A stretch of 63,301 nucleotides of DNA, filler included, from Reclinomonas americana ATCC 50394 (Eukaryota): assembly GCA_048213135.1 (NCBI GenBank). It is 4 parts of 2 records of this genome, joined end to end, with 100 filler letters (N's around TTAATTAATTAA, not from the genome) between each part and the next. Parts side by side here need not be neighbours in the genome. Positions count along the whole stretch, not along the records: positions 1 to 28,493 come from PS015261.1; 3 more parts are not named here. The stretch is one strand, 5' to 3'. The notes beneath the pieces are model-generated. The model saw only the letters and a program-made list of their open reading frames with translations. It was not told where the DNA came from and searched no databases. Each line of letters begins with the position of its first letter. Position 1 is the first letter of the stretch. This document shows positions 6,675-63,153 of this stretch, one piece after another. A program made the position numbers and the translations under genes.

Positions 6675-9600
6675 ATGGCCAGCGCAGGAGGAGCAGCTGC
6701 AGTGGCTGCGCCAAACTCCCCTCTCGGTCCGGATCCTCACGAGGTACGTACGCACATGGGTGAAGTGACCTGCACTCATCACTCCACGCTCCAGCAGCCT
6801 CGGAGTCACGACAGGCGAGCGTTACCGTCGGAAACGAGCATTTACGAAATTGCTCGAATCGCCGAAAATTCCACTCACACACTGTCAACAAACAAAGGTG
6901 AGCGAAGAAGAGCCCCGCTGTTTCTGTGTTATCCCGCGCGCTCTCCTTGGCACACCACAACATCTTCTCTCTCGCACACACACACGCACTCTCTTTTACA
7001 TTGTGTTGCGTGGGTGTCTGTGTCCAGTTGGCGCAAAAATAGCCTCGCAACTGCGTCGTCGTTCTCACACGCACACACAAACAACTGCCACTCTCAACTC
7101 ACACATCTTGTCAAACACACGCGCACACACACACGAACAGAGAGAGAGACACACGCACATTCACACATCGTAAAAGTCAGAAGCACCTGACAATTGCCGA
7201 CGACTGAATTGTTGTACGCACGCGTGCACACAGTGACAGCGAGAGAATGACAGAAACGCACTGTCAGACAACGCGCACAACGGTGATTTCTTCACATGCG
7301 ACTCGCATCAAACTCACTTTGCTATTTCTTCCCCCTTTCCCCTTGTTATTATTGTAGATGGAACACGTTCGACTGAAGGTGTTTTTCGCGGATGGAGTGA
7401 CGGTGAAGCGATTCCCGTTGCCGGCGATGGCGACGCTGTCGGCGCTGTTGCAGGCGCTGAGTCAGTATGCGGTGGGGTTGGGCGAGACGGCGCTGCCGAC
7501 GCGCTTCTACCTCGAGTATGACGACGATGAGGGCGATCGTGTGGGATTCGCCTCGGAGCAGGTGTGTGTATAGTTGGGGAAGGGGGGAACGAGACCTTGT
7601 TGACGTCTCCGATCAATCTCCAGTCTTGTGCTCCATCCACTGCTTGTTTTCTCCATTCTTGCTTCGTCGCGTGCTGTGCTGCGAGTTGTGTCTTCCTTGT
7701 TTGTGTGAGATCCTTGCTCCTTGGCGTCAAGCAAACCATCTTTTGCAGATCTTGTGAGAACTTTTCTCGATGACACCAATCTTGCTTGCTTGAGACCCTT
7801 GCTCCTTGGCATATCTTGAAAGCCACCTGTTGCTGAACTCGGGCTCCGCATTGCGCGTCTTCTTTGAGTTTATCTTCCTTGTTTGCTCCGTCAGCTGGCT
7901 TCCCTTCCGTTGCTGACGTCTGACATCTTTTCTCTGTCACGCCGAGCCTTCATCTTCCTTGTTTGCGTGGGACCTTTGCATTCCATTTTCTGCTTATCTT
8001 GTGAGAATTTTCCTTAGTCGCACGAGCCTTCACCTCTCTTGCTTCGCGAGGCATTTGCTCCGTGACCGCTTGTTCTCTCCATTCTTGCTTCATCTCGTGT
8101 TGTTCTGCGAGTTTCTGTCTTCCTTGATCTTTGCTTCTTGGCACCTGTTGTACTGCTTTCTGCTGATCTTGTGAGACCTTTTTTCGATCACGTCGATCCT
8201 TCACCATCTTGCTCTTGCATCTCTTGAAGACCGAGTACTTCTGCGTGATCCTTGTTCCATCGTACCCTTGTATCCAGTCCTTGTCGTTCTTGTTTTGTGT
8301 CGTTTGCTCCATCACTGTTCGTTCCTCCTGTCCTCCTCCTTCTCCTCTCCTTTCCTCTTTCTCCTTTCCTCCCCCGCTCTCCATTCTCCTCCCCCCCTTC
8401 TCCATTCCCCACTCACCCCTTCTCCTTCTCCTCCCCCCTCGCAGGAATGGGTGGAGGCCAAGCGCATTGCTCTGCACATGGAGCGCCCGCTGAAGCTGCG
8501 CGTGATTGCCGGCTCGAGTGGCCCGCACCTGGCGCCGGCGCCGGTGCTCATCAACTCGGGCAGCAGCGCTCTGCCGCTCCTCAGCGAGTCGTCCATGGCG
8601 CCCGGCCTGACCGTTTCCGGCAGCAATGGCAGTGGCAGCAGCAGCGTGCCGCGTGTCCCCGCGCCGCCGGTGAATCCGCGCGACGAGATTGGCGAGTCGT
8701 GGGTCATGGTCGATCACCCGGCCTCGCCGACGCTGGTGGTCCCCATTCCTTCGGCGGAGCACGCGGCCGACGACGCTGTTGATGAGTCCGTGGCGCAACC
8801 GTCACTGTCCATCTCCTCGGCCGTGTCGCCAATGCTGGCGGTGGAGGAGGAGGACACGTCGGTCAACGCACTGCCGCCACCGCCGCCGTTTGTGGAGGAG
8901 GTGGAGGAGGTGCCGCTGATCTCCCCGGTGTCGGAGCCGTCACCTGCCCCGCAAGAGATGGAGATTCTGGCCCCGCCGGCCCCAGCTCCAGTGCCTGAAT
9001 CCGCCCCTGTCCCAGCGCCAGCGCCAGTGCCAGTGGCATCCTCGGCCAGCGACGCGATCAGCGAGGCCGCCCGCAACGAGCATGTGGCCTCGTCGCCGGC
9101 AGTGGTTTCCTCGGTCCCGGCCTGGGCTTCCGCTTCGCAGCAGCGCCCAGTGCTGCCAATGGCCAAATTTGTGGCCGACGCGCAGTTCGAACCCGGTACG
9201 GAGGTGGAGGCCGCCACCTGGTTCACCAAGACGTGGCGCATCGGAAACCCGAAGGAAGCGTGCGTTCTCATCTCTTTTCTTTAGTCATCTTCTCTTCCTT
9301 TGCTGACTTTTGTGTTGTTTGTTTTCCAGGCCTTCGGATTGGCCGCCAGGATGCTACCTGAAGATGGTGGACGGCACGCTGCTGGAGGGTGCACGCGACG
9401 TGCACATTGTGTGCCCGGTGGGCCTGCGACCTCGTGAGACGGCCGACTTTTCGGTGCGCGTGCAAGCGCCGCGCGTGCCGGGCCACTACGTGTCGCACTT
9501 CCGTCTGCACACGCCGACCGGCAACTCGTTTGGCGAGGTGTACTCGATCCGTATGAACGTCATCCCGCGTGGTGTGGACGATTCGTCGCCGATTCCACTG

Positions 9601-10099: not shown

Positions 10100-14996
<4,897 letters not shown>

Positions 14997-16058: not shown

Positions 16059-16528
16059 ATGTCTGCACACCATCAACACCACCATCACTATGGTGGCGAT
16101 GGCGGTGGCGGTGGCAGCAGTGGGGCGAGCTTCTACCCGCAGCCCTCCTCTGACATGGAGGATCTCTCTGCCTCCACAGGCTCTGCTGGTGCTGGTGGAG
16201 GAGGAGGAGTGGCAGGTGGAGGTGGTGCAGGTGGCATGTATGCGGGCATGGGAGGCGCGCGACGAGAAGTGCGGCAGATTTTGGGCACCACTTTCGACAT
16301 TGATGGGAGATATATGATTGAGCGTGGATTGTTGCGTTCGCTCTTCTTGTGTGTGTGTGTGCGTGTGCGAGAGAGAGAGAGAGAGTGTGAGAGAGAGAGA
16401 GACAAGAACACGCGCATGACAGATAATCTCTCACTCACTGCAGTCGCTCACAATCTCTCTCACTCTCTCTGACTCTCTCTCTCACTCACTCTCACACTCA
16501 CTGCACTCACTCACTCTCACACACTGCA

Positions 16529-16593
<65 letters not shown>

Positions 16594-19500
16594 TCACTGC
16601 ATTCACTGTTCACACTCACTGCCCTCACTCACTCACTCTCTCCTCTGCTCTTTGCCCTCTTTCTCCTCTCTTACATCACACAGTTTTGTTTCTCTCTGTC
16701 TCTCTCTTTCTCTTTAGAGTTTAGGCGCGTGAGTTATCTTTGTTTGTTGTCTTTTTTTTTTGTTGTCGCTCTCATCGCTGCTCCAGCAATATCACGCTGA
16801 CATGTTCTTCTTGTGTGTGCAGGGGACGCGGGTCGTATGGAACAGGTGCGTTGCTGCTGCTGGATTTCGGATTGTATCTCTGGAGTTCTTTCGCTCTTGT
16901 TTTGTTCCTTATCCTTCCTCTTTATCGCCGTGGTCTTCCTGCTCTCTGCGCTCCTTACCTCTCATTGTGGTCCGTTGCATCTCGCTGTGCTGCATGCTTT
17001 CGCCGTGCGCTCCTTCCCTGTCGCTCCTTCCTCACGCTGCGGACCACCTCTCTCGATGTACTCCGTTCCTCTTGCTTTCTCCTTCGCCCTCATCGTACTC
17101 TCCGCTGAACTGCTTTCCTCCAGCTGTGTTCTATCCCTCTCGCAGTTCTGCATCTCTCTTGCTGTACCCCTTGATCTTGCTGCTCTCCATCTCTCTCGCG
17201 CTGTGCTTCTTTCGCCCGCTGCGCTCCTTCCCTCGTTGTTTTCCATCCCTTCCGCCTGCTCCTCGTCGTGCTTCTCTCCTCCCCCTTTTCCCTTCTCTCC
17301 TCTCCTTCCCCTGTNNNNNNNNNNNNNNNNNNNNNNNNNNNNNNNNNNNNNNNNNNNNNNNNNNNNNNNNNNNNNNNNNNNNNNNNNNNNNNNNNNNNNN
17401 NNNNNNNNNNNNNNNNNNNNNNNNNNNNNNNNNNNNNNNNNNNNNNNNNNNNNNNNNNNNNNNNNNNNNNNNNNNNNNNNNNNNNNNNNNNNNNNNNNNN
17501 NNNNNNNNNNNNNNNNNNNNNNNNNNNNNNNNNNNNNNNNNNNNNNNNNNNNNNNNNNNNNNNNNNNNNNNNNNNNNNNNNNNNNNNNNNNNNNNNNNNN
17601 NNNNNNNNNNNNNNNNNNNNNNNNNNNNNNNNNNNNNNNNNNNNNNNNNNNNNNNNNNNNNNNNNNNNNNNNNNNNNNNNNNNNNNNNNNNNNNNNNNNN
17701 NNNNNNNNNNNNNNNNNNNNNNNNNNNNNNNNNNNNNNNNNNNNNNNNNNNNNNNNNNNNNNNNNNNNNNNNNNNNNNNNNNNNNNNNNNNNNNNNNNNN
17801 NNNNNNNNNNNNNNNNNNNNNCGTCCGTCGTCGTCGTTCTTTCCGTCCCGTCCGTCGTCGCGTCTTCCCTTCCTTCGTTTCTCCTCCTCCCTCCTCGTCC
17901 TCCTCGTCGTCGTCTCTCCCTTCCTTCCTCTCTCTCTCCCTCTCCCCCCCCCCCCCCCCCCCTCACCCCCCTTTTTCTGGCCCACAGTATGCAGAGCACG
18001 GAACCGCGAAACTGGCGAAGTGGTCGCCATCAAAAAGTTCCGCGATGTCTTCAAAGTTCCGTGAAACCCTGCTTTCCCCCCTCATCGTTCCCCTTTCGCC
18101 CGTCTCTCACACCCTTCGCTTCTCTCTCGTCAGAACCTACGACACGCAAAGAAGTTTCTGCGCGAGATCAAGCTGCTGGTGCACTTTCACGGACACGAAA
18201 ATGTTGCGCGCACACATTTGTCAACGATGCCTGCCCATCCCTCTCTCACCGCCTGCGCGCAGATCGTCTCTGTCAAAGACATTGACAAACCGCCGGACCC
18301 GTTCAATTTCAAGGACATTTACGTGGCCATGGATCTGATGGTTTGACGCCGCACAGCAATCTGTGCCTGCCTCTGCGCGTGCCTGACATGCGTGCCCCCT
18401 CCGGCTGCAGCAAACGGATTTGCATCAGGTGCTGCAGAGCTCGTTCCGACTCACCGAGGACCACATTCAGTACTTTATGTACCAGATTTGTCTCGGCTTG
18501 CAGTACATTCACAGCGCCGACGTGTTGCACAGAGACTTGGTGCGTCTCCCTCCCTCCCTCCCCCTCTCCCTTTCTCCTTCTCACTCACGCTCCTTGTGTG
18601 TGCGCCCACCGCAGAAACCAAGCAACATTCTACTCAACGAGACGTGCGATCTGAAGATCTGCGACTTTGGTCTGGCGCGCGGTCGCGGCGTGGGCGAGCA
18701 TCTCACCGAGTACGTGGTTACGCGGTATTACCGGCCGCCGGAGATTCTCATGAAGGATCGCAACTACACCAAGGCGGCGGACGTGTGGTCTGTCGGCTGC
18801 ATCTTTCTGGAAATGTACCACCGCAAGGCGGTCCTCCGAGGCGACGATCGCTACGATCAGGTGCGTGCGCTCTTGTGGAGACGAGTGGAACGCCATTGTT
18901 TTATTCATCCGTTGTTCACAGTTGCGGTTGGTGGTCAACTTTACTGGCTCCCCCGCCGAGGAGGAGTTCAGTGCCGGCGCGAGCGACGAGATGAAGGCCG
19001 AGGTGCGGTCCATGGGCTTCCTTCCACGCAGATCGGTCCGCGACTTGCTGGATCCCTCGGTGCAAATCTCGGACCTCGGTGCGCGAATTGTAGTGCAAGG
19101 GGGCGGGGCATTCATTTTTGTTGTTCCTCACACTCTTCCGTGCCTGTCGCGACAGCGTGTGACTTGATCGAACAGATGCTCCGCTTTGCACCCGGTGATC
19201 GTTGCACGATGGAGCAAGCGCTGCAGCACCCCTACTTTGAGGAACTCTTCGACATGGAGGATCTCGTTGCGTGTGCTGTGTGGGAAAGGCTGTGTCGCTC
19301 TCGATCGCTCGTACGTTGTGTCTGTGGCTCTCCTACTGTGCATTGCTCGACCTCTGCGTGTGTTCGCTGGGCATCGCCTGACAGCCTTCTTATGTGTGAG
19401 TGTCTCGATGGGGGAGTCTTGCGCTTGTGCGTCAGTGTGTCGACTCTGCGTGTGTCTCTCTCGCTGTCTGTGGCACCGTCTCTCGCACAGTGCACTGCTC

Positions 19501-20550
19501 GATCTCTGTGTGCGTTCCCTGGGCATCGCCTGACAGCCTGTTTAAGTATTTGTGTGCTGAGTCTTGCGCTCGATCGCTCGTGCGTCATTGTGTTGCTTCC
19601 TGTCTTCGGCTTCATCTCTCTCTTCGCGTTCTCACTGGGCATCGCCTGACCGCCTCTTTATGTGTGCGTGCGTGTGGTGTTGGACGAATCTTTGTTCTTC
19701 TTCCTCGCTATCACGATTCTCTCATTGGCCGTCACGGCGCCGGTGTCGTGCACTGCAGTGTGGAGGACGTGTGTGCATCTATCTACGTATGTGTGTGTGT
19801 CTCTCTCTCCGTGTGCACATATTAGATACGCGCACCACACAGTTCGTTGTCGCGACAGAGAGGAATGTGGCTCCAGTTTCTTCACTGTTATTATTATCTG
19901 TTCGGTGCTGGGTGCAGGTGTGAGGCGCCTCTCCCTGTCTCCCTCCCTTGTGTTCTCGCGTGTCTTTGCCCTCGGTTGCAGATTCTTTTATTCCGCCGTT
20001 TCGCCGTTGTGTCGACTACTTGCGATTCATCTCTCGCCTTCTGTCCGCATTCGTCTCCAACTCCGTCACTCACCTGTCGCCGCATGTGCACTTGTCCAGG
20101 CGAACGCCCCGCCCTTTGATAATGCCTTTGAGGACGTGGCCGAATCGCAGACGCACTTGCGCGGTCTGTTTCTCGAAGAAATCACCCGCTTCCGCCCCGA
20201 ATTGCCCGACGAAATTCTCAACGCGATGTACACGTTGCGTTTGCATTCGCTTGCCATGTTTCCGTGATCATCTGGGAAACCTCACTTTGGGCGTTTCAAC
20301 AGGGGCGACGTGATACCAACATTCGATCCGATGTGCTTCCCGTCGTTCGAACGTCGGCGACAGGAACGAGAGGGCGAGTTGGCAGTGATGGGTGGTGCCG
20401 CAGAGGTGTGTATCTGTGTTTTGCAAGCATGCTGTCGCACTCTCTCTCTCTCTCTCTCTCTCTCTCGCACTCGCACCCACTGTCTGCAAGCTTGCTTGAC
20501 TCTCCGTCTTCCGTGTGTTCTTGCTTTGTTTGTTCTCTTTCATTTGTCCT

Positions 20551-21175: not shown

Positions 21176-28493
<7,318 letters not shown>

Positions 28494-28549: not shown

Positions 28550-28963
28550 NNNNNNNNNNNNNNNNNNNNNNNNNNNNNNNNNNNNNNNNNNNNGGATGGG
28601 CAGGCGGCTGGACGGGTGATGGAAGAATGGGTGGCAGGAGTGCCATGTCTTGACTGCTGAGGAGGCTGCAATAGTGGACGCGAATGACCACTCCACACAC
28701 ACACACGCTCTCTCTCTCTCTCTCTCTCTCTCTTTTGCTCACCGAAACCTCATGTTCCTCCTCTTCAACGGAGGCTCCTTGGAGGAGGTGGTTGTGGTCG
28801 CGATTGCGCATGCACGTGGTCTTGTCCACGGGCATGCAAAGTCAATCATGTCGGGCGCCTCTGTTGCTGCTCCCTCCTCCTCACACTCTCGCCGTGTGCG
28901 ATTCTCCATGAATGTGTTCACTTCAACTCGGCAAAAATGCGCGATGCTCGCGTTTCATTATTG

Positions 28964-29746
<783 letters not shown>

Positions 29747-30314
29747 TGCGAGATCAACGAGGTTGGTGAAGGAAGGCAAGGGAGGGGGAAGGAGGGGGGA
29801 AGGAGGGGGAAGGAGGGGGAAGGAGGGGGAAGGAGGGGGAAGGAGGGGGAAGGAGGGGAAGGAGGGGAAGGAGGGGACGGAGGGGAGAAGGGAGGAGGGA
29901 GGGAGGAGAGTGAGAGAGAGAGAGAGNNNNNNNNNNNNNNNNNNNNNNNNNNNNNNNNNNNNNNNNNNNNNNNNNNNNNNNNNNNNNNNNNNNNNNNNNN
30001 NNNNNNNNNNNNNNNNNNNNNNNNNNNNNNNNNNNNNNNNNNNNNNNNNNNNNNNNNNNNNNNNNNNNNNNNNNNNNNNNNNNNNNNNNNNNNNNNNNNN
30101 NNNNNNNNNNNNNNNNNNNNNNNNNNNNNNNNNNNNNNNNNNNNNNNNNNNNNNNNNNNNNNNNNNNNNNNNNNNNNNNNNNNNNNNNNNNNNNNNNNNN
30201 NNNNNNNNNNNNNNNNNNNNNNNNNNNNNNNNNNNNNNNNNNNNNNNNNNNNNNNNNNNNNNNNNNNNNNNNNNNNNNNNNNNNNNNNNNNNNNNNNACA
30301 CACACACACACACC

Positions 30315-30361
<47 letters not shown>

Positions 30362-30587
30362 GCTCACCGAAACCTCATGTTCCTCCTCTTCAACGGAGGC
30401 TCCTTGGAGGTGGTTGTGGTCGCGATTGCGCATGCACGTGGTCTTGTCCACGGGCATGCAAAGTCAATCATGTCGGGCGCCTCTGTTGCTGCTCCCTCCT
30501 CCTCACACTCTTGCCGTGTGTGATTCTCCATGAATGTGTTCACTTCAACTCGGCAAAAAATGCGCGATGCTCGCGTTTCATTATTTG

Positions 30588-33500
30588 TCACTGTAGGTCC
30601 CGCGTGAATCCGCCAAGTCGCTCCCGCAGGTCTTGCATCACGACTTTGGCGGTCTCCGATGTTGAACGCTCCTCCTCGTACAGCGACATGCATCTGCGGA
30701 GCGAGACTAGCCGATCAGTTGACTGGAGGGAGGGTTTCGAACAGGATCGTCACGCAACTGTACACCGAGTCGAAGTAATCCGTACGCCACATCTGCAGGC
30801 CACTCGCCCGCTGTGGCATCGGCCTCGCGCAATGCGTCCACTGTTTCTGGTGCGCGTTCCCAGCGCGGTGCAAGTGTCACGAGCAGTCGTGCTTCTTGGC
30901 CGGTGAGCAATTGTAGGGCGATCAAGCCGAAAGCGTACATGTCCATCGACTTGCGAATGTTGCCCGATTGCAGGAAGAGTGGATCAATGTAGTGTGGCGA
31001 TCCAGCGTGCGTCGTGGTGTGGCGGTGCGTCTGCAGTGAGGTGCATTGAGAAAAACGAAGGTTGATTGGTGCCGACGCTCTGCGCATTCTCACCTCCCCC
31101 TCGTCGAACGTGCGGGCGATACCAAAGTCGCCAAGTCGCGGCTCGCATCGGTGATCCAGGAGAATGTTTGACGGTTTCAGATCGCGGTGCACAACATCGT
31201 TCTGCAAAGGCAAGTGAGACGAAGGAGAGGGCATGCGCAAAATAGAGGGACACTCACTCGCCTGGTGCAGGAAGCACACGCCCTCGGCGATGCCGAGTCC
31301 GATTTGCACTCGCTCCACCACCGTCAGTGGCTGCATGCCGTCCTTTCGATTCAGCAGGCGCACCTCCAGGTCTTGACCACTGCGAGATCAACGAGGTTGG
31401 TGAAGGAAGGGGAGGAAGGCAAGGGAGGGGGAAGGAGGGGGAAGGAGGGGGGAAGGAGGGGGAAGGAGGGGGAAGGAGGGGGAAGAAGGGAGAAGGAGGG
31501 GGAAGANNNNNNNNNNNNNNNNNNNNNNNNNNNNNNNNNNNNNNNNNNNNNNNNNNNNNNNNNNNNNNNNNNNNNNNNNNNNNNNNNNNNNNNNNNNNNN
31601 NNNNNNNNNNNNNNNNNNNNNNNNNNNNNNNNNNNNNNNNNNNNNNNNNNNNNNNNNNNNNNNNNNNNNNNNNNNNNNNNNNNNNNNNNNNNNNNNNNNN
31701 NNNNNNNNNNNNNNNNNNNNNNNNNNNNNNNNNNNNNNNNNNNNNNNNNNNNNNNNNNNNNNNNNNNNNNNNNNNNNNNNNNNNNNNNNNNNNNNNNNNN
31801 NNNNNNNNNNNNNNNNNNNNNNNNNNNNNNNNNNNNNNNNNNNNNNNNNNNNNNNNNNNNNNNNNNNNNNNNNNNNNNNNNNNNNNNNNNNNNNNNNNNN
31901 NNNNNNNNNNNNNNNNNNNNNNNNNNNNNNNNNNNNNNNNNNNNNNNNNNNNNNNNNNNNNNNNNNNNNNNNNNNNNNNNNNNNNNNNNNNNNNNNNNNN
32001 NNNGGAGGGGGAAAAAGGGGGAAGAGGGGGAAGGGAGGAATGAAGATGGAAGGACGAGAGAAGAGACGAACACGGTAAAGCAGAGGAATGAGAAGGAGTA
32101 AAAGAAGTAGGAGAAGGAGAAAGAAGAGACGGAGAACTGCAGCATGCACAACAGCCACAAAAGGGAGGATGAGACAGTGGTCGGCAAGGCCCAGCGCACT
32201 CTCTGTCGCTCACTCCCAGTCGCCTTCTCGCTCACGATCAATGACACATTCCTCGAAATTCACACCTTCTCTCACCACAAAGCTAACAGCACATGTCTCT
32301 TACAAACTCACCGCATGGCTCGATAGACAAGACACCGCTCCCTCGCCGTACCCTCCACAAGTGCAGCGAATCCGAGCAGAGGAACTAGTCGTCGATGGTG
32401 CAGTCGGCCAATCGTATTCACCTTCAATCGTTGCAGCGTTACGGTCGGAAAACACACGCACTTCTGCCCCACCGCTCCTCCTCCACCCACCTCTGCCTCG
32501 TACGACTCGGCCGCCCACGGTGCGCTGCTGTCGAGCAGCTTGATGGCCACATCCTCTTCGTCGAGCCAGCACAGATACACTGCACCCTGACCGCCCTCCC
32601 CGGCCTTCATCTTCTTGTTGAACGATCCAGTGGCGCGCACAATATCCGCCCACGCGTACTTGCGAAGACGAGCGGGATCCGCAGCTACAATGCATGCGCG
32701 CATGAGTCCGCAAGACCGTGGAATGGCGGTTGGTCGTCCACCTACCGTAGAACAAGTTCAACTCTCTGCGCAGACGCTCGACCTCGCTGGCGAGATCGGC
32801 AGCGCGCTTCTTTTCGGCGGCAAGCGACTCCTCCACAGCCTGTTGCGCCTCTGCGCGTTGTTGCAGGTCGCGTTGCAGTCGGGCCACCCGCTCCTCCGCC
32901 GCACACGCCCTCTGCTGCATGTGTGCCACGATTTCGTCGGCCGCCAACACTTGCTCCTCAGCAGCATCCGCCCTTCGCTTCTCTCCGACCAGCCTCTCCT
33001 GCACGCGCGCCGCGTGCTGCTCCGCAGCGGCCACTTTGCGTTGCAGTTCATCGCGCTCTCGACGGACCACGGCAAGCTCGCGCTGGAGATCGGCGACAGG
33101 AGGATCGCCATCCACTGCTGGCGACGGACCGCCCTCGTCCGCCTGCGACGCCGGCTGCATCACGAACAGCACCAATGAGACTAGAGAACACCGCAGAAGC
33201 AACGCAGCAGGCTCGCACCTGATCGGATCCCTCTGCGCACCGACACAAGCTCCGGCTGAGACCACAACGAAACACGGAGGAGTGAGAGGGACGCAAGCAA
33301 ACAAACCTGGCAATCGTCGAGTCGGCGAAGGCTGCCCGACCAGCCGCCCGAGCAACTCGCTCACCGGTCGCCTGCCCTGCTCGCGAGCCAACTGCGCCGC
33401 GGTCTTGCCATGCGCATTGACGAGAGGAATGAGATCGGGGAACGCAGTGGCCAGGTGCCGCACAATCGCCTCGTGTCCATTGTAGGCCGCACAGTGCAAC

Positions 33501-36705: not shown

Positions 36706-36809
36706 CTGGAAAGAGGGGCGAAGAGGGGGTGAGAGAGGGAAGGAAAGAGAAGGAGAGCGCGAGGTGAAGACAAGTGATGACGGAAATCTGCGTCTGGTGG
36801 TCTCCGATG

Positions 36810-37060
<251 letters not shown>

Positions 37061-57426: not shown

Positions 57427-60400
57427 CGTGTTGGGCGTCCATCGAAGACGACTGGAGTACACCACCGGGTCCACCAGCGACAACCGCAGCTTCGTTCTGC
57501 ACATGCGAACGCCATTGTCGGTCACATACCGCTCGGAGGTCTCCATCTGCGCCGCGCAATGCATGTGAGCTATAGGTGCACATTTTTTGAGCACAGAATC
57601 CACGGCGACGCAACATGCTCGACAATGTCAGACAACGGGAGTGGAGTCAGTTGCGTGGCAGCGAGGCGCAGCTTGGGCTTGTTGATGTGCGGCAGTCCCT
57701 TGACGCTCATAATCGGCTGCTTCACACTTGCCGACATCAGAAGCTCACGCAAACGCGGGATACCGACAGTGACGTGAGCCATATCGACACCTGCACACGA
57801 CCGAGCATGGATTGTAAGCAGGGGCAGGAAAAAGATGCATTGGCTCGGAATATGAAAACGAACCGGCAAAGTGGAACGTGTTGAGCGTCATTTGCGTCGA
57901 CGGTTCACCAATGGACTGACCGGCGAGCACGCCCACGGCATCGCCCGGCTGCACAATGCTGTGCATGTACTTCAGATTCACCAGTGCGCGCAGTCCGTTC
58001 GGAGGCAACGTGAGCTGCGGAAAGCGTGTCAGCAAAAAAGACGCAACCTCTCGCGATACGCTAGAAAACAAAGAAAACGAAACAGCGTGCTCCATAAAAT
58101 CGGGCGTGTCGGCGGTGCCGACGAGCTTGTCGGGATTCTTTGTGATGTAGTCCTCCACAGACTTGGCCACCTTCTCCGAGATGCAACCGAGGTTGTTGGT
58201 GGGGTTGAACTTGGAGATGGCAGGCATCACTGGATTCTCGCGATTCAGCAGACCGCCGCCCCGCTCCACTGCCGCCGCGTACTTGCGCATTGTCTTGCTG
58301 GCGTAGCTGCGTTGCTCCAGCACCTGCAATCCAGCCGTTAGCGACCCACGAAAAATAATGTGCAAAGGGAAGCTCCTCATACCTGCAGCACTTGCGGCGC
58401 AGCGTACTTTTCGCTCAACGCCTTGGAGTTCATGGCCAGGAACGACATGTTGTGCAGGTAGCGATTCTTCATCACGTCGATCGAGTCCTCGCCGTAGTTG
58501 AACTGCAAGCAGATCGACATGAGATCCAGCGCACTGTGGTAAGTCAGTTGCTCACAAACCTGCACCACACTGCCGTCGGCATCGCGCACGGTATTGTCGT
58601 ACGCCACCGTCAGGCCCTCCATGTGCTTGATGAGACAGCGCTGCAGGTAGCCTGAACGCGACGTCTTGACAGCCGTGTCGATGAGACCCTCGCGACCGGC
58701 CATGCAGTGGAAGAAGTATTCCTGCGAGAGGGAACAAGGTAAGAGGGAGAAGGGTGGAAGAGAGAGAAGGGTGGGAGAGAGAGAGAGAGAGAGAAGAGAG
58801 AGAAGGCACGAAGATGCACAGAAAAGGAGACAGCAAAAAGGGGGAAGAATTTGACAGCAGGAGATGCAGCAAGAGAGTGGAGACTCGACAGCAGTACGGG
58901 AGAAATACCTCACAACAAGAGAGAACAGACAAAGCAGGTGGAGAGACAAGACAACAGAGGAGAAGAGTCTCAGCGTCAGGAGAGTAGATACACGACATCA
59001 AGGGAGACAACAAGAGATAGAAGACTCTACTGCAGCAGGAGAAAAAAACTCGACAACCAGAAGACGACAACAGAAATGAGATCAAGAGAAGAGACTTGAC
59101 AACAAAAATGAGATCAACGAGAGAAGAGACTTGACAACAGACACAGCGAGAGAGAGGAGACTCGACAACAGCACGAGCAGAAACACTCGATACAGAGAGG
59201 GATACAGAAGAGAACAGGCACAACCTCACGAGATGAGAGGCAGAACAGGTTAGGACAGATACTGCAACGAAACAAGAGACTCGACAGCAGCAGGTTAAGA
59301 ATCTCCACATCAAGAGAGACAACAACAGGGAAAGACACGACTGCAACGGAAAACGAAATAAAGAGAATGACAACCGAGAAGAGTCGATCGAGGGAAGGAA
59401 CTCTCACAACCTTGTTTCTATGCTTTCCTCATCTCTCTCCCATGCCTCACCTGCGGTCGAATGCCCGTCAAGAAACGATCACGAATGAAACCACTGGCGC
59501 GCGCCTGCGGATCAAACGGCTCAAAGCTCGGCAGAGTCTTACCGCTCGGCATCGGAGGCACACGCTTGCCCTCGTACTCCTGCTGGCCGAGAAGGGCCAT
59601 AATCTGCGACATGTTGACCATACTGCCCTTGGCGCCGGACTGCGTCATCAAGCTGAAGTTGTTGCGAGGGAACTCCTTCAGCTGGCCGGCGGGGATGCAC
59701 GACCGAATCACGTCCGAGGCCATCTTGTTCAGCGTCTTCTTCACCTCGCCGTCCAGCTTGCGCGCATTGGTGGGATCCTTCAGGAACACTTGCATCTTGT
59801 TCTTCATCTCCAGCTTGCTGTACTGCTCGTGGAACAGCTCGTGGGAGGCGGCGTTGTGCTTGGGTCGCACCTCGGCCAGTCGCGCGTAAATGTCGTAGCA
59901 CGATACGTTGGCCTCGGCGAGCACGCGGTTGCGGTATTCCTCTGCCTTGCTCTGTGAAGGGGAGGGTGAGGGAAAGGGAGGGTGAGGGAAAGGGAGGGTG
60001 AGGGAAAGGGAGGGTGAGGGAAAGGGAGAGAAGAGAGGGAAAGGGAGGGAGGAGAGTTAGGGAAAGGGAGGAGAGGGAAAGTGAAGGAGGAGAGGGAGAG
60101 AGATAGGATTGGTAACACAGAGAGAGACAGACAGACGAGAGAGAGGTTTTGTGCGAATGCAGTAAGAGATGTGGTGGGAAGCGAGCAACGCAAGCAGCGG
60201 TGTGTGAGTCGAGACATAGTGAAGGAATATGCACACAAGTGAACACAATCTCGCAACGCATGAAAGCAAAGCGTTGTAAAGGAGCACAAGCTCACGACAC
60301 TATCACACGCTGATTAAACAATTACACGAGTGCTATGACGAGTAACAGACTGACGATCTCTCTCACATACAAAGACACGAGGGTCGCCTACTTGGGAACA

Positions 60401-63153
60401 GAGCTGCACGCGTACAACACTATCACACGCTGATCAAACAAATGCACGAGTGCAATGACATGTAACAGACTGACGATCTCACACGATGATCAAACACATG
60501 CACGAGTGCTATGACGTGTAACAGACTGACAATCTCACAATCAAAAACACGAGGGTCACCACATGAGAACAGAGCTGCACGCGCACAACACTATCACACG
60601 CTGATCAAACACATGCAAGAGTGCTATGACATGAAACAGACTGACAATCTCTCACATACAAAGACACAAGGGTCGCCTACTTTGGGAACAGAGCTGCACG
60701 CACCACCAGCATGAGATCGTCGAGGCCGCACGTCAGACCGTACATCTGAATGTACAGCGTAAAGAGACGACCGAAAATCGTCAACAGCGAGCCGGCCTTG
60801 GACGCGCCGTAGGCTTCGTACACCGACTGCAGTTCAGAGACCGCAGTCAGCCACATGCATGCACTCGTCGTCACAGTCGCCACACTACGCGTACGCAACG
60901 TGCACGAGACCGAACTCCGAAGCGCCAAATTGGTTCTTGTCCAGCACTCCAGTCAGCAGCTGGTTGTCGCGGAAAATGACGGTGCCCTCCTCAATGGCAC
61001 CGGTCCACATGCTGGCCGGCACCTTGGTGCTCGAATCGAGGTTCAGACCTGGCGAGCCGGCGGTGAGCATGTTCATGATGCTGGTGATCTGCACGACGAC
61101 AATGATGACGATAACGTGTCAAACACGATGATGACCGACGACTGGATCACGACGAATGCACGCACCACTTGCTTGCCACTCCACATGGGCACCGGCTTGA
61201 AAATGCACGGCGGCACGGTGTAGATGCGCTTCGTGCCGATATACTGGTACATGCAGCCGTACAGAAGCGTCTGGTACTCGTCGCGGGTGAGGAACGTGTC
61301 CTTCTTTGTCAACAGCACACCACCGCACACGTGATCCTGCGCGCGCACACATGAAAGTGGTCAACATCGGTTGAAGGTGGAGGATTGTGAACATTACAGT
61401 GAGCACACCTGAATGAGACCGCGGATGGGCTTGCCGGACGTCGGCACCACGTACTGGTTGTCCGTGTTGGAGATGAGCATGGCCTCGGCACTCGCGAGGT
61501 AGTTCTGCACAGCAACCACGCAGTCAGCAATGAAGAGATAAAAAAAGGGGCGCGGAAGCACACACCTGCGCCAAGTGAAGATTGATTTCATCACCGTCGA
61601 AATCGGCATTGTACGTGTTGCAGTTGGCGTAGTGCATGCGAATGGTCTTTTGGTTGGAGATCACACGCGCGCGATGCGTCATCATACTCGGCTTGTGCAA
61701 CGTCGGTTGGCGATTCACCAACAGCATGTCGCCATCTCGCAGGTGACGCAGGACTTTCTTTGGTCCGCGATCTGCTCGCGTGTGAGGCATGATGAGAACG
61801 CGATGGAAAGAAACAGGTGGGACACGAACCGCCAGTGCCAGTGGTGGTCATCAGAGTCTTGCTCGTGGCGATGCGTTGCTGCTCGGTCAGGTGTGACTGT
61901 GTGGCAATAGAGGTGAGTCGAGGTCGAATAGGGAAGGAAAAGAGGGAAGGAGAAGGGGGAAGGAGAAGGGAGAAGGAGAAAGAGGGAAGGAGAAGGTGAA
62001 GGAGAAAGAGGGAAGAAGAAGGGGAAAGAGAAGGGAGAAGAGGGATGGGAAGGTGAAGGGGGAAGGTGAAGGTGAAGGCGAGAGGAAGGAGACAGGGGAA
62101 GGTGAAGCGGGAAGGTGAAGGACCGGAAAGAGAAGGAGAGGGAGGAAGGTGAAGGGGGAAGGTGAAGGGGGAAGGTGAAAGGGGAAGGTGAAGGGGGAAG
62201 GTGAAGGGGGAAGAAGGGGGGACGGAACAGGGGCAGGAACTCTGGCAGGATGAGGAGGAAGGAACAGGGGGGAGGAACAGGGGGACAATGAAAGGCACTT
62301 TCTCCATCTCTCTATTTTTCTCCCCTCTCCCTCCCCTCTCCCTCTCCACCCCTATCCCTCGTCCTTCTCCTCTCTCCTCCCCTCCCGTTCTCCACCCACT
62401 CACCAAATCAATCATCCGACCATCCTCCTCCACCACAAACAGCGCACCCGGATGCTTGCGCGGTCCATTGATGACGCACTGGCGCAGGCGCTCGACGTTG
62501 AAGGAGTTGACGGACTCGGGGAACGAGAGACGCGTGGCAAAGTACAGCGGCACGCCAATTTCGCTCGTCTCCAAGTACAAGTCGGGGGAGATGACGGAAC
62601 GCGCGGCGTAGTTCACACGCTTGCCCATCATGTGCTTGCGGAAGAGACCCTCCTTCTTCTCCAGGATCTGCTTGATGCCGGGAGGATCGCCGGCAGCGCC
62701 ACCCGTCGAGTCCATCAGCGCATTCACCGCACGCTGCATCTCCAGGCAAATGTTGATGATCAGACCCGCCTTCTCCTTCTGCATTCGAGCAAAGATAGCG
62801 CGGTCGAACGGGTGAGAGCTGTGGAAGAGAAACAGAGGCAGCCATGACCAGACAAACCTCGCCGACTTCACCCGGCTTCTGATCGAGCATGGCAAAGAGG
62901 GCTTGATTGGAGCGCAACACGCGCATCAACGTCTTGTTCTGCACATGCTCGTACACCATGTCGTTCATCACGGCCGGCGGGCGGAATCGATTCGGCGGCA
63001 CCGCCACCACGTCCATGAAGAACATGTCGGCGCTGACGGGCACGCGGACACCGTCAGTGAGCGTGCCAAAGAGTCGAGTCAGCAACTCGCTCTCCCGCTG
63101 CCACATCTTGCACAAGTGGGCGCGCACTTCCGGCACACTCATGTATACGATTC
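57427..63153 (-). CDS. RPA1: RNA polymerase I largest subunit (internal part; both ends missing)
   Basis: [128 protein letters not shown]; these are the Pol I-type variants of the motifs. Confidence 0.95.
60297..60702. repeat. Degenerate tandem minisatellite in an RPA1 intron, starting at the 5' splice site
   Basis: Repeated acactatcacacgctgat.aaaca..tgca.gagtg..atgac...aacagactgac.atctc units; gaacagagctgcacgc at about 60396, 60567 and 60686. Confidence 0.82.

Follow-up and report, generated by a model that had tools for sequence, protein, structure and literature searches.

A GT-AG donor class tied to exons that do not end in G, and its possible one-base-offset register, in a stretch of the Reclinomonas americana genome

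Does an intron need a G as the last base of the exon that precedes it, or can it bring this G along itself? The role of the conserved exon-end G at the 5' splice site (donor) is debated, and U1 pairing, U5 loop pairing and later steps have all been considered. The question is raised by a stretch of 63,301 bases from Reclinomonas americana ATCC 50394 (assembly GCA_048213135.1), the whole of which is called here the window. Its genes are split and their exons short, and they include genes for a mitogen-activated protein kinase (MAPK), the RNA polymerase I largest subunit (RPA1) and a GH35 beta-galactosidase. An original prediction, made by hand from the DNA, had counted 26 of 27 "shifted" donors (GTTnCG) after A, C or T and about 53 of about 55 "conventional" donors (GTnnG) after G, and had proposed that both classes are one 7-mer, G-K-T-G-C-G-T, read in a fixed register. 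In this study, we find that the introns of the window do fall into two donor classes coupled to the last exon base (position -1), that a downstream G-C-G-T(G) block stands one base farther from the cut in the shifted class, and that the shifted introns have no common body. In what follows, a slash marks the cut and H stands for A, C or T.

Donor class and the last exon base

Introns were called by two approaches, both blind to the -1 base, namely our own gene finder and the spliced alignment of proteins to the genome. The gene finder is a generalised hidden Markov model whose mode A treats any bare GT as a donor and learns codon statistics, an acceptor matrix and intron length, and whose mode B has in addition a donor model of two components, restricted to positions +3 to +9. 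A version with a self-trained full donor and acceptor matrix was discarded, as its calls grew to 133 introns, genes were fused and the MAPK gene was no longer found. The spliced aligner accepted any GT..AG pair with no splice-site matrix, and was run with 10 MAPK, 10 RPA1 and 12 GH35 homologs. Introns backed by at least 6 of 10 or at least 10 of 12 homologs constitute the homology-fixed set of 29 (7 in MAPK, 11 in RPA1 and 11 in GH35), all of them GT-AG introns whose removal restores the frame, 7 with shifted and 22 with other donors; candidates at 16331, 19266/19278, 62857/62866, 58083/58122, 57614 and 45811 were excluded from it for low or split support. Replacing four miscalls of the finder and adding nine homology-supported donors gave a merged set of 102 introns.

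The coupling between donor class and the -1 base is real in this window and lies far beyond chance. When positions +3 to +9 of the 88 introns called in mode A were clustered without supervision into two components, a TGCGT component (weight 0.30) emerged that is preceded by T in 12 introns, C in 10, A in 3 and G in 1, and a second component preceded by G in 39, C in 14, T in 8 and A in 1. Mode B called 97 introns, 26 with GTTnCG donors (after A 6, C 8, T 11 and G 1), 56 with GTnnG donors (43 after G, 13 after another base) and 15 with other donors (Fisher p = 1.5e-10). This association persists in the stricter subsets tried; where both exon scores are at least 10 and the intron is needed for the frame, -1 is G in 0 of 15 shifted donors vs 29 of 37 conventional ones. 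In the homology-fixed set all 22 non-GTTnCG donors follow G, and the seven GTTnCG donors follow T four times and A, C and G once each (Fisher p = 1.5e-5). The merged set holds 28 GTTnCG donors (27 after a non-G base, 1 after G), 62 GTnnG donors (49 after G, 13 after a non-G base) and 12 others (p = 3.9e-12), and the shifted class accounts for about 27% of the introns in it. The contingency test, on predicted and homology-fixed introns of the window, thus bears out the association that had been counted by hand: the near-absence of G before shifted donors is reproduced (27 of 28 after A, C or T), and the majority of conventional donors do follow G, in a lower fraction (49 of 62) than had been reckoned.

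The bias can also be read from the DNA with no gene model. The heptamer GTTGCGT occurs 27 times on the two strands, against 8.5 ± 3.1 expected (0 of 100 dinucleotide-preserving shuffles reached 27), and G directly precedes it in 2 of the 27 cases; GTGCGT occurs 90 times, against 40 ± 5.9 expected. From the codon-position composition of the predicted exons and the intron phases, 33% of shifted donors would be expected to follow G. The fraction found is 1 of 26 vs 0.33 (binomial p = 4e-4); at GTTGCG sites outside the called donors, the base in front is G in 8 of 40.

It appears to us very improbable that the coupling is an artefact of intron calling, or that it marks a mobile family of introns which bring their 5' end with them and insert behind bases other than G. 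The introns were called from sequence and homology, and the predicted sets are noisy, since the finder hit the exact donor in 12 (mode A) and 20 (mode B) of the 29 homology-fixed introns. However, the coupling is cleanest in the homology-fixed set, for which no donor model was used, and it is already present in the raw heptamers. Miscalls of the finder were improved by the two-component donor model, and wherever homology corrected a call the corrected donor always fitted the rule. As for a mobile family, local alignment found no mutual similarity among the shifted introns beyond the donor (the mean score is 7.7 within the shifted class, 7.85 within the conventional class and 7.9 across the two), and self-comparison of the window found no repeat family that covers them. 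An introner-like family was rejected for the same lack of extended similarity among copies.

Median intron length is 69 nt in the shifted and 77 nt in the conventional class, and the acceptor is CAG in 22 of 26 and 51 of 56, respectively. Phases, base composition and YTRAY motifs show no clear difference between the classes (YTRAY occurs in 8 of 21 short shifted and 9 of 30 short conventional introns, its median distance from the 3' end being 17 and 20 nt), and CTGAC-like motifs stand near some intron 3' ends. Both classes are found within the same genes, with shifted donors making up 5 of 11 in MAPK and, in the homology-fixed set, 4 of 11 in GH35 and 1 of 11 in RPA1. Because intron length, composition, CAG acceptors and genes are shared, one spliceosome most likely removes both kinds. 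The U12-type 5' splice site is of the RTATCCTT kind; the shifted introns were rejected as U12-type, their 28 donors in the merged set being GTTGCG (24) or GTT[TC]CG (4). There is a weak difference at the other end of the intron, where the exon that follows starts with G in 12 of 26 shifted vs 13 of 56 conventional cases.

The register of the shifted donor

The shifted heptamers (n = 26) are GTTGCGT in 17 cases, GTTGCGC in 4, GTTTCGT in 3, and GTTGCGG and GTTCCGT in 1 each. The conventional hexamers (n = 56) are GTGCGT (10), GTTTGT (7), GTGTGT (7), GTGAGT (6) and others, and their +4 base is A in 14, C in 16 and T in 23 of the 56. The G-C-G-T(G) block lies one base farther from the cut in the shifted class: of its 26 donors, 21 have T at +7 and 11 have G at +8, and of the 56 conventional donors, 36 have T at +6 and 27 have G at +7. 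A T at +3 alone is not the determinant of class, because 11 of the 12 conventional donors that read GTTnG stand after G. The whole pattern can be written as G-K-T-G-C-G-T, cut after the first G if K is G and before it if K is T; by position, G+1, U+3, G+4, G+6 and U+7 of the shifted donor then fit slots -1, +2, +3, +5 and +6, and the base before the 7-mer is seldom G in either class (-1 in 1 of 28 shifted donors, -2 in 2 of 49 conventional ones). A common register is favoured by the offset block and by the scarcity of G before the 7-mer in both classes, and to this extent the proposed 7-mer stands. It falls short where it was meant to cover conventional donors at large, of which only the GTGCGT subset (10 of 56) fits, and it sits badly with an unshifted -2 preference and a near-invariant shifted class.

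The explanation that we prefer, to which as a whole we give about an even chance of being right, is that the window comes from the nuclear genome of a eukaryote rich in introns whose genes mix two kinds of ordinary GT-AG intron, and that in one of these the G+1 of the intron replaces the exon-end G. Conventional donors of the form G/GTnnGT(G) would depend almost fully on G as the last exon base, and a second stereotyped donor, H/GTTGCGT(G), would serve exons that end in A, C or T. In the shifted kind the reading of the 5' splice site would be offset from the usual register by one nucleotide: the G-C-G-U(G) further on would be met one base farther from the cut, the intron's own G+1 would stand in for the exon-end G of conventional donors, and the only GU present would still set the point of cleavage. 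The offset would presumably be read by small nuclear RNA (snRNA) pairing, U1 first and then U6. A G in the "-1 slot" may be needed by the machinery in a role beyond duplex stability, with the offset register supplying this G from the intron. A more general form, which we put forward tentatively and think somewhat unlikely to hold in full, would have the machinery require a G that stands a set number of bases upstream of the G-U(G) paired by U6, on either side of the cut. The exon-end G and G+1 would then be interchangeable, and about a quarter of introns would use a one-base-offset second donor code that frees exon ends from G. An origin of the shifted class from G/GTGCGT, by a change of G+1 to T with a one-base slide of the junction, was rejected by reasoning, as such a slide could not restore the lost exon base at an AG acceptor.

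Several observations weigh against an offset register. The shifted class is nearly invariant, as GTTGCGT, while conventional donors vary at +3 and +4, and the preference for A at -2 is kept in both classes (13 of 28 shifted, 30 of 62 conventional) and has not moved to -1 in the shifted one (A at -1 in 6 of 28); both facts speak against a plain shift of one motif. Such a shift should also yield GTTGAGT and GTTGTGT donors, and no GTTGAG or GTTGTG donor was called in the window, even with the bare-GT model, although the two heptamers are present 7 and 12 times. Thirteen of the 62 predicted conventional donors follow a base other than G, and two of these, at 9260 and 23967, look sound. Every junction was placed by frame, coding potential and homology, and the sample consists of one 63-kb stretch and homologs from distant organisms.

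Pairing energies add to these points. Duplexes were computed with nearest-neighbour energies in RNAduplex for a human-type U1 5' end as printed in Tan et al. (2016), which may not be that of the organism's own U1. In these calculations AG/GUGCGUG reaches -8.9 kcal/mol and H/GUGCGUG -2.3 to -2.5 kcal/mol. The value for H/GUUGCGUG is -0.6 to -1.4 kcal/mol, weaker than that of the rare H/GUGCGUG, and for AG/GUUGCGUG it is -5.9 kcal/mol, so that a G at -1 should strengthen the pairing. By canonical U1 energies, therefore, the common shifted class should bind worst of all and should gain from a G at -1, which is the opposite of what is observed, and RNAduplex with this U1 does not select the shifted register for H/GUUGCGUG. 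As modelled here, standard-U1 pairing energy does not explain the coupling to the -1 base.

Where canonical U1 pairing fails to explain the class, a separate reader of GUUGCGU might be called upon, either a protein factor or a U1 that is a variant or has a changed 5' end, and the organism would use two donor codes in parallel. In being nearly invariant, the class resembles a dedicated binding site, and a donor consensus other than GTRAGT, namely GTGCGTG, is known in Ostreococcus and Micromonas, for which the portions drawn on here of Irimia and Roy (2008) and Verhelst et al. (2013) raise changed snRNAs as a possibility. We nevertheless hold a separate reader to be quite improbable, since the downstream GCGT(G) is common to both classes, which suggests one reader, and since a separate reader does not by itself explain the avoidance of G at -1; in addition, a Rfam scan of the 63-kb window returned no match of any kind, snRNA genes included.

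The unmoved preference for A at -2 would be better accommodated if the exon were in its normal register. U1 and U6 would then be placed as usual at G+1 and U+2, one U of +2/+3 would bulge, and G-C-G-U would pair as +3 to +6 with the exon end unpaired. The -1 pattern would be the product of evolution, the bulged form being kept only where the exon is without G and the shorter GTGCGT winning otherwise. In human, bulging at +3 (or +2) is a proven register (Tan et al., 2016), and stronger U6 pairing at +5 to +8 is reported to make up for loss of the -1 G (Artemyeva-Isman & Porter, 2021), which would fit the strict C-G-U(G) of the shifted donors. However, with such a bulge one more base pair should be gained from a G at -1, which would then be favoured or at least neutral, yet it is depleted (1 of 26 vs 0.33 expected), so that the exon-end G does not remain favourable in shifted donors as it should in a bulge at +2/+3. 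The duplex with a human-type U1 is, moreover, negligible when -1 is not G. We consider a bulged U, together with the evolutionary history that it implies, to be unlikely.

Comparison with known donor registers

The comparisons in this section draw on portions of the papers cited. Donors in a one-base-shifted register have been proven for U1 at few sites in human (Roca & Krainer, 2009, as summarised in Tan et al., 2016), and the likeness to an offset register in R. americana is close: there, too, the donor is a GU, the pairs are moved by one, G+1 comes to stand in the exon -1 slot and the cut falls before the GU. The validated noncanonical registers of human together make up 1.5% of 5' splice sites (Tan et al., 2016), a rarity that stands in contrast to the share of about 27% of introns in the window. 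Unlike the human shifted register, the class described here consists of one near-fixed heptamer tied to a non-G exon end, pairs poorly with a human-type U1 5' end and is known from its sequence alone. The human registers with a bulge at +3 (or +2) resemble it in that an additional nucleotide separates GU from the G-U further on, which pairs with U1 and U6, as in GT(T)GCGT (Tan et al., 2016). In these the exon is in register and a -1 G should help, whereas here -1 G is depleted and the class is far commoner and near-invariant. It is also a reported trend in human that loss of the -1 G goes with compensation by +5 G and U6 pairing (Artemyeva-Isman & Porter, 2021), and the shifted donors are similar in that, where -1 G is missing, intron positions further downstream are more conserved. 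The human compensation is graded and takes place in one register, in contrast to the near all-or-none switch seen here between two motifs that differ by one inserted base.

A further point of comparison is provided by Ostreococcus and Micromonas, in which AG/GTGCGT(G) donors occur together with a CTGAC branch point (Irimia & Roy, 2008; Verhelst et al., 2013). As in these algae, GTGCGT(G) is the commonest conventional hexamer of the window, and CTGAC-like motifs are found near some 3' ends. The accounts given in those two papers mention no GTTGCGT class, and, unlike Ostreococcus and Micromonas, the organism studied here appears to be intron-rich and has an RPA1 closest to amoebozoan and opisthokont proteins, not to those of green algae. 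A text search of the literature found no description of a GTTGCGT donor class, donor logos in figures and supplements not being text-searchable. As a regular second code that is tied to the exon end and used by about 27% of introns, an offset-register GT-AG donor would be new, one-base-offset registers as such being already known from human, where they are rare.

Two solutions to the donor seem to coexist in the same genes, either an exon G, or no exon G and an extra intron base. If an offset register is true, it would amount to a natural, genome-scale separation of the U1/U6 binding site from the cut site, an altered or second U1 being also possible. If confirmed, the organism could show how the position of cleavage is kept apart from snRNA binding, and it would offer hundreds to thousands of matched natural examples with which to study the effects of register, bulge and the -1 base on donor strength. 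In a genome of this kind, about one intron in four will be miscalled by gene finders trained on one donor matrix only.

Individual genes, exceptions and other features of the window

The MAPK gene was located by tblastn and spliced alignment on the plus strand at 16287..20405, a span that runs from the exon before its first donor to the last exon of the original prediction. The part that can be aligned with homologs has 11 exons and 10 introns, and the spliced model of 387 aa is stop-free and matches MAPK homologs at E values of 1e-81 to 1e-103, although its exon 2 was placed one base off (16824-16846), which corrupts eight of its residues. All 11 donors that had been proposed for this gene read in the DNA exactly as they had been written; mode B recovers nine of them, and seven introns are supported by 9-10 of 10 homologs in the spliced alignment. 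The first donor, shifted TT/GTTGCGT at 16331..16337 (intron 16331-16822), is chosen by 4 of 10 homologs, with an alternative at 16355 in 2 of 10, and translation across its junction yields the kinase glycine loop G-R-G-S-Y-G. Exon 2 (16823-16845 by spliced alignment) is followed by conventional AG/GTGCGT at 16846..16851, whose intron, 16846-17987, includes an N gap (9 of 10 homologs). Further downstream lie shifted AA/GTTCCGT at 18056..18062 and AT/GTTGCGC at 18203..18209 (9 of 10 each), and conventional TG/GTTTGA at 18341..18346 (10 of 10), TG/GTGCGT at 18540..18545 (9 of 10), AG/GTGCGT at 18861..18866 and CG/GTGCGC at 19079..19084 (10 of 10 each). The shifted TC/GTTGCGT at 19266..19272 (intron to 20099), called by the gene finder, is ambiguous: 2 of 10 homologs choose it, and 8 of 10 favour 19278 (T/GTGTGG), which lies 12 nt further on and adds four residues in a poorly conserved stretch. 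The intron 19266-20099 holds several copies of a unit that ends in GGGCATCGCCTGACAGCC and contains a CTGAC branch-like motif. Beyond the reach of homology, the gene finder predicts shifted AC/GTTGCGT at 20234..20240 and conventional AG/GTGTGT at 20406..20411.

The RPA1 gene occupies the minus strand from 57.5 kb to the end of the window (63.3 kb) by protein and Pfam matches, and its nearest relatives are dictyostelid, nucleariid, Capsaspora and chytrid proteins with 49-67% identity. Comparison of its model with 8 homologs revealed three errors of the finder, in place of which stand conventional TG/GTGCGT at 61160..61165 (first intron base 61165; 9 of 10 homologs), superseding a miscall at 61126, shifted AC/GTTGCGT at 60893..60899 (intron 60827-60899; 10 of 10), and conventional AG/GTTTGT at 58554..58559 (10 of 10), whose intron the finder had missed. 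This last intron, 58503-58559, has 57 nt and encodes 18-19 extra residues that are absent in all 8 compared homologs; being in frame and free of stops it is invisible to frame-based calling, and was thus revealed by homology only. In the GH35 gene (44.6-48.9 kb, minus strand, by Pfam and homologs), 12 of 12 homologs back each of the shifted donors AT/GTTGCGT at 48438..48444, AT/GTTGCGT at 47494..47500 and CT/GTTGCGT at 46804..46810. A protein that matches a GH35 exon strongly, P0241, was considered as the organism's own and rejected (spliced score 504). Elsewhere on the minus strand, a Rad17-like gene (10856..12334) has three shifted AT/GTTGCGT donors, with first intron bases 10862, 11994 and 12334, that are called even with a bare GT, and for another gene (23553..28467) the finder predicts six, at 23559, 23832, 25020, 25183, 27658 and 28467, those at 25020 and 25183 already with the bare-GT model.

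Among the exceptions to the rule that had been named, the one shifted donor after G, TGG/GTTGCGT in GH35 (46611..46617, minus strand), is confirmed by 10 of 12 homologs. Conventional donors after C were likewise reproduced by the gene finder, with and without a donor model, as GC/GTGCGT in an NBR1-like gene (9260..9265, plus strand; flanking exon scores about 192 and 143) and as CC/GTGCGT at 23962..23967 on the minus strand. For a possible A/GTGCGT near 51725, the hexamer is indeed present on the minus strand, but the finder picked a donor 54 nt upstream, at 51779; the site at 51725 would yield a 76-nt intron in the same frame. Several of the 13 conventional calls after a non-G base are doubtful and look like mispredictions, among them introns of 43 and 47 nt, introns of more than 1 kb that bridge gaps, and a donor in a GTGTGTGTG tract (microsatellite GTGTGT). 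Predicted donors of the form H/GTGCATGC were noted at 28815, 30437 and 51779 (minus strand), the first two in paralogous copies. These copies belong to a kinase gene segment that is tandemly duplicated, 28708-29870 and 30333-31505, with 93.6% identity over 1181 bases including introns. Both have the same predicted C/GTGTGC donor (29645, 31279) and H/GTGCATGCG donor (28815, 30437). MAPK homologs align to these tandem kinase genes with scores of about 110 and are too distant to judge the C/GTGTGC donors at 29645 and 31279.

The window as a whole has about 50% G+C, 24 N runs and abundant (CT)n and (GT)n tracts. Pfam, applied to 300 of 540 six-frame open reading frames and 48 of 71 predicted exons, named few genes: a GH114 glycoside hydrolase at 3.7-6.0 kb and, besides the MAPK, GH35, RPA1, NBR1-like and Rad17-like genes and the two tandem kinases, ubiquitin-like, ankyrin and Ras-like genes. 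Searches of protein collections brought up no near-identical protein, and the homolog search gave no match among longer proteins for a 312-aa exon at 1410-2345. A metagenome scan with an RPA1 exon returned only loci that are 40% and 28% identical, and no relative for comparison of orthologous introns. At 36806-37060, 49790-50034 and 53868-54130 lies a repeat, about 250 bases long and with a short period inside it, that shows many offset self-matches of 88-99% identity; each copy adjoins an N gap. Lastly, the segments 40955-41275 and 43944-44262, both inside predicted minus-strand exons, are 82% identical over 324 bases.

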